Shown here one piece after another: positions 1-2,177 of a stretch of 10,399 nt of DNA. Origin of the DNA: a virus (Monodnaviria > Loebvirae > Hofneiviricota > Faserviricetes > Tubulavirales > Inoviridae). The notes beneath the pieces were generated by a model. The model was not told the origin of the DNA, did no database searches, and worked only from the letters and a program-made list of their open reading frames with translations. A program made the translations under genes and the position numbers. The DNA lies in the IMG/VR virus record IMGVR_UViG_2609459774_000002; one strand, 5' to 3'. Position 1 is the first letter of the stretch. Every line of letters begins with the position of its first letter.

Positions 1-264
1 TTAACCACCCAATGATTTATCATATAAACGCAAACCATATTCATCATAACTGAATAAATAATCATAAATATAATCGACTGATAAAGAGCGCAAATCACCA
101 TGACGAAACAATAAAAAACATGATTTACCTGAATTATCCTGTTTAATTATAAAAAATTCAAAAGGAGTGATTTTTATCTTTATAAAATCACGATTAATAA
201 AAACACTGTAACCCTGATTAGCACATGAAGATAAAAAATCAGAAATAAAAGGAGTGATATGCAT
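1..264 (-). CDS. Hypothetical 87-aa protein in a strongly AT-rich segment, immediately downstream of gpV in element B; stop codon at the window edge
   Basis: Complete ORF in the track (ATG at 264, stop at 1-3); GAGAGG-like RBS about 5 nt upstream; sits where Ff phages have gpVII/gpIX but is neither small nor hydrophobic; no family recognised. Confidence 0.35.
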   Translation of the reverse strand: MHITPFISDFLSSCANQGYSVFINRDFIKIKITPFEFFIIKQDNSGKSCFLLFRHGDLRSLSVDYIYDYLFSYDEYGLRLYDKSLGG

Positions 265-305
265 AAGAACCTCTCAAAGCCCCACACAATGCGGGGCAAA
301 AGCCA

Positions 306-581
306 TCACAGATCCTTTGAAGACAAAGGGCGAAGAACAAAAGAACGGGCATAAGCGAGCCTGTGATACTTTCCGACAGCTATGCATTGCTCAGTCAGTT
401 CATAAAAACCGGCGTCATAAGGTGGCTGGCCATCTGCAAGTGGAAAAACAAAAAGCTCAGGGTAATCAGCGCCAAGATAAATATATCCTTTCTGCTCACG
501 GGACACCCATTTTTTGCCGTCCTTCTCACCGGAGCGTTCATCAACGGCAACCTGTGACGGCTTAATTTCAATTTTAATCAT
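306..581 (-). CDS. gpV-like ssDNA-binding protein (Ff gene V family)
   Basis: N-terminus MIKIEIKPSQ and a central DGQPPYDAGFY segment parallel M13 gpV (MIKVEIKPSQ ... EGQPAYAPGLY) as recalled; 91 aa, typical size; directly follows the gpII-type Rep. Confidence 0.8.
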   Translation of the reverse strand: MIKIEIKPSQVAVDERSGEKDGKKWVSREQKGYIYLGADYPELFVFPLADGQPPYDAGFYELTEQCIAVGKYHRLAYARSFVLRPLSSKDL

Positions 582-591
582 ATCTTACCTC

Positions 592-1641
592 TCAGTAATT
601 CACGGCACACGGGGTGCGGTTAAAATCAAATATCAGACCCTTTTCATATATCCATTGCGGTATTTCTGCAGGTCTGGCTTCAAGAACACGAACCATCGGA
701 ATAATGTTGTTTTTATCCGGCGTTTCACAATAGAAATTAATATCAATACCAAAATCAAGTAGTTCTTTACGATGGCGAAAAAAAGTAGGTTTTGGTAAAA
801 CAGATTTTAAATTTACTCCCTGTTTCCAAAGTAAATAAGTAGACCTAACACAACGAGATAATTTGTTTATTTTTTCATCGCTTAGCAAAACGTTCTGACT
901 CATCTCTATTCTGCCTATATAATCAGTAAATAATTTCATTGCTGTTTCAGCAGTCCAGCTTTTTCCCAGTGACTGATTAATTGTCTTTAATTCAAGTGAA
1001 CGCAATACCAATTCAAGACGTAATTTATCCTTTGTCCAGTCAAGTAATCCCGCATAAACAAATTCGGCAGGTATCTGATGACCTTTTTTACCGCTCATGT
1101 GTTCATCATATTTCGAATAACCCTTACCACTCCAGCGACGGGAATGCTGACCAAAATAAACCGTTCCTCCCTTACCCGTGGCGCGACCGTGACGGGTTCT
1201 GGCCTTAAATTCAGCGGCATAAAGCCAGTTACGAACATTATCAAGAGAACCCAGCTCAAACATGTAATTAATATCAACACGCAGAAGCCGGAACATACCA
1301 TCAAGGACCTCACGATAAGAGCACATATGGTGAGGAATATTCAGTAACGACAAAACACGCGCATAAACAGCAACCGCAAGCCCACGCAAATCATCAGAAC
1401 CAACAACATTATGACCCTGCAAAAACTTTGACGGATTGCCATCGATGTAAAGATGGGAGCAACGCCCTTCCCCATCAGAACCGACAGAACGCACATACAA
1501 CGATGATTCATGAGAGCCACGAACAGCAAGACGCTTAACAGCCTTCCACTCAACCTCACCTGATGCATCAAGACTGATAACTGAGCCGGAAGGCAAAGGC
1601 TCGTGAACACAGGGATAAATTGCAGTAAGCCAGTCGATCAT
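592..1641 (-). CDS. Rolling-circle replication initiator, Ff gene II family (element B)
   Basis: N-terminus MIDWL and the motif SKFLQGHNVVGSDDL parallel M13 gpII (MIDML ... AKVLQGHNVFGTTDL) as recalled; C-terminus IIPMVRVLE resembles the gpII C-terminus; followed by gpV as in Ff phages. Confidence 0.8.
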   Translation of the reverse strand: MIDWLTAIYPCVHEPLPSGSVISLDASGEVEWKAVKRLAVRGSHESSLYVRSVGSDGEGRCSHLYIDGNPSKFLQGHNVVGSDDLRGLAVAVYARVLSLLNIPHHMCSYREVLDGMFRLLRVDINYMFELGSLDNVRNWLYAAEFKARTRHGRATGKGGTVYFGQHSRRWSGKGYSKYDEHMSGKKGHQIPAEFVYAGLLDWTKDKLRLELVLRSLELKTINQSLGKSWTAETAMKLFTDYIGRIEMSQNVLLSDEKINKLSRCVRSTYLLWKQGVNLKSVLPKPTFFRHRKELLDFGIDINFYCETPDKNNIIPMVRVLEARPAEIPQWIYEKGLIFDFNRTPCAVNY

Positions 1642-1642
1642 A

Positions 1643-1700
1643 ATCCTTAGATTCTAAGAAATTATTTATGCGGCTTTTATAAGTTCTTAGATTATCAAAG
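1643..1700. promoter_or_regulatory. Divergent promoter/operator region between Rep B (-) and the 62-aa ORF (+); contains palindrome CTTAGA-T-TCTAAG and a second TTCTTAGATT copy
   Basis: Palindrome lies immediately 5' of the Rep B start and overlaps its RBS (AAGGA); a related motif recurs about 40 nt away. Confidence 0.3.
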
Positions 1701-1758
1701 TCAACAGATATAAGTATTTAGATATATGATCCAGAAAACATAAAAGGAGACTAAGAAA

Positions 1759-1947
1759 ATGCCAACAAAGCACATAAACGATGTTCAATGGAGAAAAATA
1801 GAGAAAGAAACCGTAAAAGCCGTAACAATGTTAGCCTTACCAGTAAAAGATACTAAAGTTCTAGAATGGATAATAACAAAGGGACTAGAAAGCATAACGG
1901 AAGATGACTACAAAAAATTTGGTGCAGAACTAAGGGCAAAAAAATAG
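1759..1947 (+). CDS. Small 62-aa protein, divergent from Rep B; putative immunity/regulatory protein by position only
   Basis: Strong RBS AAGGAG 9 nt upstream of ATG 1759; followed by hairpin terminators; same position as the divergent regulator of element A and as rstR in CTXphi-type genomes; no motif recognised. Confidence 0.45.
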   Translation: MPTKHINDVQWRKIEKETVKAVTMLALPVKDTKVLEWIITKGLESITEDDYKKFGAELRAKK

Positions 1948-2013
1948 AAATTATGTACAGACACGACGATTGCTGAACAAAAAGCAGACAAAGAGTCTCA
2001 AAAATGAGACTAA

Positions 2014-2043
2014 AGTGCAGTATTACATAACACTGCACTTTTC
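2014..2043 (+). terminator. Rho-independent terminator (stem AGTGCAGT / ACTGCACT, then T-run) downstream of the 62-aa ORF
   Basis: 8-bp inverted repeat with a 10-nt loop followed by TTTT; preceded by a second smaller hairpin (AGTCTC / GAGACT near 1993-2010). Confidence 0.5.
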
Positions 2044-2177
2044 TGGTGCGCTTAAAAAGTAGACGTTTTACCGTGGGATATTACGGTAAATATCGGGTGT
2101 AACAGAACTCCCGAACCGCTACGCGGTTAAAAATTAAACGATAGTTTCGGGGGCGTCGCTGTCTGTCTGAACAACAG

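Follow-up and report, generated by a model that had tools for sequence, protein, structure and literature searches.

The 10,399-nt stretch of DNA analysed here (the window; IMG/VR record IMGVR_UViG_2609459774_000002, Inoviridae) contains a second set of filamentous-phage replication genes to the left of a complete filamentous prophage, which raises the question of what kind of element these genes belong to and how it could spread. The initial annotation had taken positions 1–2177 for a further, different filamentous element that integrates at dif and lies in tandem with the prophage, a view that is supported by extension of the sequence and by recurrence of the junction in a complete genome. 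The locus holds a distinct 3.7-kb dif-integrated replicon of filamentous-phage descent, with gpII, gpX and gpV genes and an origin of its own, a CTXphi-class attachment site (attP), no virion genes, an organization in tandem arrays, genes under purifying selection and modular variation; this part of the assignment is solid. With a probability of about 0.65, we attribute the element to a filamentous-phage satellite at dif of Escherichia coli whose packaging would depend on a helper. Packaging and export would be provided by a complete inovirus, most likely the adjoining phage of the E24377A type with its Zot and secretin genes.

Extent and gene content of the element

The window is the reverse complement, bases 1–10399, of an E. 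coli draft contig (JNPW01000048.1, assembly GCA_000703925.1; locus L009). Open reading frames (ORFs) were taken from a six-frame listing and compared with the profile libraries Pfam, PHROGs, NCBIfam and PADLOC. All four ORFs reported earlier for 1–2177 were recovered at their coordinates. To the left of the window the source contig continues for 1,105 nt, all of which belong to the element and are 100% identical to a unit in the complete genome JNE112863. This extension, which the initial annotation had proposed as a check for structural genes, contains a gene for a 201-residue helix-turn-helix (HTH) protein, non-coding DNA and, at the contig end, the edge of a dif-like hairpin, and nothing else; in the complete genomes the HTH gene is likewise followed by the next attP, by dif or by a tandem copy. 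The element is not confined to 1–2177 on the right either, where it extends via a block shared with the neighbouring prophage and an attP hairpin to position ~2558. Contig extension and complete genomes together give a full unit of 3,674 bp (JNE112863), of which window positions 1 to ~2558 represent the right-hand 70%. In window orientation, the unit reads from left to right: 201-residue HTH protein, 87-residue protein, gpV, gpII, a 62-residue ORF (+), a 57-residue ORF (+) and the attP hairpin.

The full unit possesses its own replication module, and no gene for coat protein, pIII, pVI, pI/Zot or secretin was found in any complete unit, neither in the contig extension nor in the complete genomes, as is characteristic of a satellite. 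A search of the unit for hidden small coat genes gave none: the 57-residue ORF is the sole stand-alone hydrophobic ORF, and every other one overlaps a known gene in a different frame. All genes of the element are under purifying selection between variants 5–10% apart, as judged from the ratio of nonsynonymous to synonymous substitution rates (dN/dS), and the size of the unit is constant at 3.56–3.73 kb.

Replication genes and origin

The rolling-circle initiator of the element is a gpII-type protein of 349 residues (592–1641, − strand), identified by Pfam Phage_CRI (1.4e-63) and G2P_X_C (8.9e-25) as well as NCBIfam rep_II_X (2e-73). Its amino acid identity is 67% to gpII of UPphi and 56% to gpII of I2-2, and dN/dS between element variants is 0.13–0.26. 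The 100-position profile phrog_17464 aligns, from its position 1, to gpII residues 247–343, and Met247 would serve as in-frame internal start of a predicted gpX of 103 residues (592–903, − strand). A gene X is annotated at the equivalent place within gene II of I2-2, and an internal gene X inside the gpII gene is likely for the element as well. The adjacent gpV-type single-stranded DNA (ssDNA)-binding protein of 91 residues (306–581, − strand; Pfam Phage_DNA_bind, 2e-17) is 41% identical to the Ff gene V protein and matches solved gene V protein structures in the PDB at ~1e-12 (2e-12). Conversely, it has no similarity to gpV of I2-2 or UPphi. Proteins of the gpV type sequester ssDNA for packaging. 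Both gpV and gpX are under strong purifying selection (dN/dS 0.07).

These matches bear out the earlier identification of a gpII-type Rep next to gpV. The designation “Ff gpII/gpV module” describes gpV, which is Ff-like, but not gpII, which is of the Lineavirus type, and by sequence the replication module is a mosaic of the two. Still, the complete set of parts of an Ff/Lineavirus gpII–gpX–gpV module was found, i.e. gpII with N- and C-terminal domains, in-frame gpX, gpV as an OB-fold protein, and cognate origin hairpins.

The latter are twin hairpins at 1994–2041 (− strand), conserved with I2-2 and UPphi, which are the best candidate for a viral-strand (+) origin recognized by the gpII-type Rep. 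A 38-nt stretch (2041–2005, −) matches the intergenic region of I2-2 at 87%, and alignment of four element variants with UPphi and I2-2 places two adjacent hairpins 364–388 nt upstream of gene II throughout. The stem of the second hairpin varies with compensation (AGTCTCA/TGAGACT vs. GTACCA/TGGTAC). The intergenic region that follows (2042–2298, − strand) is structured and contains blocks shared with helper phages: a DNA fold of 1985–2300 (−) yielded z = −4.7, with none of 100 shuffled sequences equally stable, and from 2069 the region is 98% identical to the JNE112863-type helper, while a part of it (2196–2261) recurs at 10072–10139. Homology and the conserved cis elements suggest that gpII would nick the origin at 1994–2041 (−) and drive rolling-circle synthesis, and that gpV would coat the resulting ssDNA. 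Because the Rep of the neighbouring prophage belongs to another family (Rep_trans), satellite and helper should replicate independently.

The attP hairpin and integration at dif

At the satellite/helper junction lie two inverted dif-like sites (2476–2571), which constitute the attP of the element. In the predicted fold of the single strand from 2470 to 2580 (−40.2 kcal/mol, z = −9.3), the XerC-like and XerD-like arms pair, leaving a 6-nt bulge in the central region. One such hairpin is present at every unit junction and at the hipA-side end of the array, where it is fused to the XerC arm of dif, and a perfect or near-perfect dif is found at the fim-side end. In JNE112863, the dif at the fim-side start of the array is a perfect match to that of E. 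coli, ATTTAACATAATATACATTATGCGCACC (reverse orientation, L001 7084–7111), and a single copy in draft L004 is joined to a 27/28 hybrid dif.

In the CTXphi class of Xer-exploiting elements, which includes RS1, Ypfphi and CUS-1phi, an ssDNA hairpin serves as attP, XerC performs the first exchange, replication completes the reaction, integration is irreversible, and progeny arise by rolling-circle replication from tandem copies (PMC4246890). Of the features of this class of integrative mobile elements exploiting Xer recombination (IMEX), the following were found here: an attP in which two inverted dif-like sites form a hairpin, a dif that is restored on one side while the hairpin stays on the other, and tandem arrays. 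The attP anatomy is that of the CTXphi class, from which we infer the enzymology by analogy. In the ssDNA circle, the inverted sites at 2476–2571 would fold into a duplex mimic of dif, and host XerC would exchange one strand pair with dif, as for CTXphi. The exchange would regenerate dif on the fim/ydeT side and leave the hairpin on the hipA side, so that arrays would grow at dif and not be excised. New circles would arise when rolling-circle replication runs from the origin of one tandem copy to that of its neighbour, and a need of tandem copies for circle production would explain why arrays nearly always comprise 2–4 units. By the CTXphi model, the hairpin from 2476 to ~2558 would belong to the satellite, and the element nearest to dif would be the latest arrival.

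Two further observations concern the use of Xer sites. The helper carries a second dif-like palindrome (2622–2717) that is 73% identical to the first (2476–2571) and is also present in some satellite variants; the fim-side junction of the array in strain cM8a used this second site, giving a hybrid dif (L013 13064–13091) that departs from the E. coli consensus at 3 positions, with no perfect dif in the array. Elsewhere (L007 3440–3560; GCA_045949795.1 contig 40), one satellite copy lies beside plasmid-type cof/CFA-III-like type IV pilus genes. Its junction site, AGTGCGCATAATCTATCTTATGTTAAAT, has the central region TCTATC, not TGTATA, which suggests integration at a secondary Xer site.

Arrays, distribution and variants

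The dif site of the arrays is flanked by hipA/ydeT. Three complete genomes illustrate the range of arrangements. JNE112863 carries four head-to-tail copies flanked on either side by full filamentous prophages; in strain 700481, a 95%-identical variant is present as two copies beside a different filamentous prophage; and in strain cM8a four copies of a 90%-identical variant are located between ydeT and hipA, with no helper. In the drafts L003 and L004, two copies or one copy were found between hipA and fimbrial genes, likewise with no helper. Proteins of the element are encoded on several hundred contigs, nearly all from E. coli and one from Salmonella, most of them 2–5 kb long as expected of a collapsed repeat. 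The attP hairpin is 100% identical within an array and ~95% identical between arrays.

In the source assembly GCA_000703925.1, two contigs (48 = L009, 44 = L006) carry the satellite and are 100% identical over 3,602 nt. Contig 48 ends exactly where the path to dif and the path to the hairpin diverge, which implies at least two continuations, namely another tandem copy or a circular form.

Variation between arrays is modular. The cM8a variant contains a ribbon-helix-helix (RHH)-like 61-residue gene (phrog_2503) in place of the 62-residue ORF, with 41% identity to the 71-residue ORF of the helper and 49% to that of UPphi. The 201-residue HTH protein occurs in alleles of ~53% identity. In a sister arrangement (L015–L018), gpII and gpV are followed directly by a 197-residue HTH protein, a 61-residue membrane ORF and an 85-residue protein; in L015 (e.g. 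8001–9035) it is present as two tandem copies between hipA and fimbrial genes. No pIII, pVI, pI or pIV was found in this arrangement (L015–L018). The 85-residue protein is matched by phrog_2186 (“virion structural protein”, 1.3e-17) and has a signal peptide, an N-terminus of acidic character, a membrane helix and a tail rich in basic residues. This coat-like gene ties the element family to filamentous virions.

Sequences shared with the candidate helper

The prophage to the right of the element (2572–10191, − strand; assigned from ORFs, Pfam and PHROGs) is a complete filamentous phage and the candidate helper. It is bracketed by a 208-nt repeat (2290–2497 and 10192–10399, 99% identity), the second copy of which (10192–10399, + strand) forms the right end of the helper, comprises a 57-residue ORF and the start of the next attP hairpin, and is cut by the window end. 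The coding modules of satellite and helper have no nucleotide similarity, and only non-coding blocks and the 57-residue ORF are common to both. This agrees with the earlier observation that the parts of the two units are non-homologous, as seen from their Reps (Phage_CRI vs. Rep_trans) and divergent ORFs (phrog_5219 vs. phrog_2503).

Three blocks are shared. The attP hairpin plus 30 nt beyond it is 97% identical both to the JNE-type helper and to the helper of the window, and the block with the 57-residue ORF is 98% identical over 408 nt to the former and 99% over 188 nt to the latter. The third is a non-coding block of ~230 nt that immediately follows the last gene in either element (92% to the JNE-type helper, 88% to that of the window). 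In the helper this block follows the secretin gene (2787–2979, − strand), and a homologous copy is present in every satellite variant; that of the window satellite is located ~640–831 nt left of base 1. Identity is 80–92% across four satellite variants and two helpers, and this includes the helper-less variants. In Ff phages, the packaging signal and the complementary-strand origin lie at the corresponding position, as does the packaging signal of I2-2. The ~230-nt block is a candidate for a packaging signal and/or complementary-strand origin. Its consensus fold includes a hairpin with 2 compensatory pairs, and the satellite copy folds with z = −3.0. A packaging signal in the form of a single strong hairpin was rejected on account of the helper copy (z = −1.1) and the origin of the 4 compensatory pairs in two lineages. 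A 51-residue ORF inside the block (2811–2966, −) is not kept as an ORF in two variants and was treated as non-coding.

As it has no coat, pI or secretin genes, the element would have to use a co-resident phage for packaging and export, and the best candidate for this role is the Zot/secretin prophage to its right. On its own, this helper is found as a single copy at dif in enterotoxigenic E. coli E24377A, bounded by the same repeat. Its structural module is rare among complete E. coli genomes (22 of 5,426), yet one of the three that contain the element has it, as does the source genome of the window; by simple arithmetic, the chance of at least one in three at this base rate is ~0.012. A comparison of the helper with the phage collection gave no match. 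UPphi was considered as helper and rejected: similarity is restricted to the Rep gene and attP, and no UPphi-type Rep was found in the three complete element-bearing genomes.

Alternative explanations

That 1–2177 and 2500–10000 are parts of the same phage, for example by circular permutation, or that the junction is misassembled, had been named at the outset as what could overturn the assignment, and a short-read draft contig with ends in repeats invites the suspicion. The satellite–hairpin–helper junction is, however, found at 99.8% identity in the complete JNE112863 chromosome, which excludes both; the element occurs without the helper in cM8a, L003 and L004, and the helper without the element in E24377A, so that the probability of this explanation is practically nil. 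A decaying, non-functional remnant of a UPphi/I2-2-like prophage with its structural genes deleted would account for the 67% identity to UPphi gpII and for the similar origin and divergent-ORF/gpII layout. We consider it improbable. All five genes of the element are intact, with purifying selection acting on them among variants diverged by up to 10%, the size of the unit hardly varies, and modules have been swapped between variants (the regulator, the ~53%-identity HTH allele, the coat-like gene). Moreover, UPphi lacks counterparts of the gpV, 87-residue and 201-residue genes, a UPphi-type Rep is absent from the three complete element-bearing genomes, and the element is found on hundreds of contigs.

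Several observations weigh against the satellite assignment. About half of the resolved contexts are without helper at dif, and in strain 700481 the helper beside the element is unrelated, with nothing but the 94-nt attP in common. The fold of the presumed packaging signal is not significant, with the helper copy no more stable than shuffles (z = −1.1) and the covariation in the consensus (4 compensatory pairs) derived from two lineages only. Fold searches of the 87- and 201-residue proteins provided generic matches only, and the frameshift in zot described below, if real, could leave this strain with no means to export either element. Helper-less arrays, the 700481 pairing and the weak fold would be expected of an autonomous Xer-integrating rolling-circle replicon (IMEX or plasmid-like) of phage descent that no longer uses virions, is maintained by tandem amplification and vertical descent, and moves by other routes. 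Tandem neighbours at dif readily swap sequence, as the homogeneity of the hairpin within arrays illustrates, and the shared blocks would then be recombination scars. Such a replicon is the main rival, though unlikely. Set against it are the retention of gpV and gpX at a dN/dS of 0.07, the conservation of the ~230-nt post-secretin block in all four variants, helper-less ones included, and the major-coat-like gene of the sister variant; occurrence in many E. coli lineages and one Salmonella, and at a secondary Xer site by plasmid-type pilus genes, points to horizontal spread. The satellite lifestyle that we favour is not without precedent, and its key step would be a transfer that depends on the helper.

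Relation to known satellites and phages

The initial annotation had likened the locus to CTXphi–RS1-style arrays, and this holds in part. The element is a distinct tandem dif element and resembles RS1 in its CTX-class attP, in forming tandem arrays with a helper at dif, and in its layout, where a small regulator gene points away from Rep and the gene for the ssDNA-binding protein is followed by one further small gene (rstC in RS1); as for RS1, production is expected by rolling-circle replication from tandem copies. However, RS1 shares rstR, rstA and rstB, its genes for repressor, Rep and ssDNA-binding protein, with CTXphi, whereas the Phage_CRI Rep and the origin of the element are unrelated to the Rep_trans of its neighbour, and its gene content is nearer to that of TLCphi. 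The latter is likewise a small dif-integrated element with an autonomous gpII/Cri-type initiator (Phage_CRI) and no morphogenesis genes, often found beside a complete filamentous prophage (PMC4246890). TLCphi integrates as double-stranded DNA via one 28-bp attP, the XerD arm of which is degenerate, in a reversible reaction that is initiated by XerD and activated by its own XafT (PMC4246890). In contrast, the element has a paired inverted dif-like hairpin with recognizable XerD arms and CTX-type junctions, and no match to an XafT-like protein (DUF3653) was listed for its proteins in the Pfam scans. It also differs from TLCphi by its Ff-type gpV, the orphan 87-residue gene, the triple-HTH gene and the host, E. 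coli. In gene content the element is like TLCphi, in integration and array structure it is like RS1/CTXphi, and it fits the definition of neither TLCphi nor RS1.

The Lineavirus phages UPphi and I2-2 share gpII (67% and 56%), the internal gpX, the divergent small ORF and the twin hairpins 364–388 nt upstream of gene II, and tandem integration at E. coli dif is known for UPphi too. Both, however, are complete phages with genes VII, IX, VIII, III, VI, I and IV and an unrelated gpV, and UPphi has no nucleotide similarity to the element beyond the Rep gene and the attP hairpin. For this dif site, the UPphi paper reports complete phages only. In the intergenic region of I2-2 (L014 2700–2920, −) we noted an unannotated divergent RHH-like ORF, split over two frames in the deposited sequence, which is similar to the small regulators encoded by UPphi, by the helper and by the satellite variant of cM8a.

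Experimentally demonstrated hijacking is known for pDolos, a small, autonomous rolling-circle plasmid satellite of the Shewanella inovirus Dolos that has no virion genes and is packaged by the inovirus. While pDolos is a free plasmid, the element is integrated, and it is a putative hijacker of its helper. Miniphages or defective interfering particles of Ff also have a small genome without structural genes and need a helper for coat and assembly. They consist of the intergenic region only and use the gpII of their helper, whereas the element encodes its own Rep, gpX and gpV and has an origin different from that of its helper.

To our knowledge, Vibrio cholerae is the only host for which filamentous-phage satellites (RS1, TLCphi) are known in detail, and one plasmid satellite has been reported in Shewanella. 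In V. cholerae, RS1 and TLCphi influence how the cholera toxin phage is acquired and how it spreads. A search of the literature, subscription-only papers lying outside its reach, retrieved work on UPphi, CUS/Ypfphi, TLCphi, RS1 and pDolos and none on the element; as far as the searchable literature goes, it would be the first filamentous-phage satellite reported from E. coli. The element is found on hundreds of assemblies, lies at dif in arrays with the Zot/secretin prophages known from enterotoxigenic strains, and joins a TLC-like replicon to CTX-like hairpin integration. If the assignment is correct, the satellite lifestyle is general, and packaging-signal hijacking, satellite–helper conflict and the Xer-mediated growth of arrays become accessible to study in a genetically tractable system. 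On the practical side, short-read assemblies collapse or break such arrays, and prophage finders miss them.

Accessory and regulatory genes

Directly after gpV lies an orphan gene for a soluble 87-residue protein (1–264, − strand), the stop codon of which is formed by window bases 1–3. Its GC content of 26.5%, compared to 42–46% for Rep and gpV, confirms the AT-rich character noted earlier. No family was found for this protein in Pfam, PHROGs, NCBIfam or PADLOC. Among 5.8 billion proteins only near-identical relatives were retrieved; a search of 1.84 billion representatives revealed one 45%-identical relative, likewise encoded directly after a gpV gene. This relative and a dN/dS of 0.09–0.16 among three element variants indicate that the ORF is a real gene. 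In filamentous phages gpVII and gpIX would be expected at this place, but as the 87-residue protein has no membrane segment, it is not their equivalent, in line with the initial annotation.

The 201-residue gene starts just left of the window, after a 2-nt spacer behind the 87-residue gene (− strand). Pfam HTH_38 and Sigma70_r4_2 each match three stretches of the protein, phrog_323 matches at 4e-25, and the AlphaFold2 model consists of three three-helix bundles. Foldseek returned no hit below E = 0.1 for it, and the PADLOC match covers a 21-residue HTH stretch only. We propose that the two genes form an accessory module of the element's own that acts on DNA or regulators of the element or of the helper. 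The 87-residue gene occupies the place equivalent to rstC, and neither a homologue of its product outside the element family nor an informative fold was detected; to regard it as an RstC-like antirepressor is only a guess. A wider scenario, which we regard as tentative at best, would have a satellite family widespread in E. coli that parasitizes Zot/secretin inoviruses, those of enterotoxigenic strains included, and carries the packaging/attP cassette of its helper. The 87-residue and triple-HTH genes would manipulate the helper, e.g. by derepressing or redirecting it in an RstC-like fashion, and sister variants would supply their own major coat protein and remodel the helper virion.

The divergent 62-residue ORF (1759–1947, + strand) matches phrog_5219 (7e-23), a family with unannotated function, and one source labels a member of its cluster “repressor”. 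It is likely a repressor, exchangeable between variants, and a candidate immunity gene. Between it and gpII lies a presumed divergent control region (1642–1758) with an inverted repeat (1653–1665/1679–1691) and direct repeats (1678–1692/1709–1723) as candidate operators. Sigma-70-like promoter hexamers are no commoner in this region than in shuffled sequences, and its control role is deduced from position.

The 57-residue ORF (2299–2472, + strand) is antisense to all phage genes and located in the block shared by satellite and helper, with a second copy at 10201–10374 (+). It encodes a single membrane helix with a very basic tail and directly precedes the attP hairpin, the GC stem and T-run of which resemble a terminator for this ORF. 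No family match was found in Pfam or PHROGs. A diverged 46-residue homologue is present at the same place in the cM8a variant (L013 27318–27458).

Genes of the neighbouring prophage

From left to right, the helper encodes a secretin (3003–4223), Zot/pI (4233–5490, frameshifted in the window), a pVI-like protein (5498–5857), a pIII-like protein (5860–7185), a coat protein (7241–7516), a 113-residue ORF (7810–8151) and Rep (8155–9381; Pfam Rep_trans), all on the − strand, and a divergent 71-residue ORF (9683–9898, +; phrog_2503). Gene I/zot is split into two frames (5308–5490 and 4233–5396) by a +1 frameshift in an A7 run (~5365–5372) just after the Walker A motif. In JNE112863 and E24377A the run is A6 and Zot is intact with 418 residues. 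The frameshift is either a homopolymer error of the draft or a real inactivation of the assembly ATPase of the helper.

Fragments of 124–648 nt that are 97–99% identical to the 3′ part of the helper secretin gene were detected on ~100-kb plasmids of several helper-bearing strains. Finally, a helper-like filamentous phage from strain JNE25-005 is recorded as a separate small “plasmid” (NZ_AP045060.1, 9,613 bp), which is probably its replicative form.

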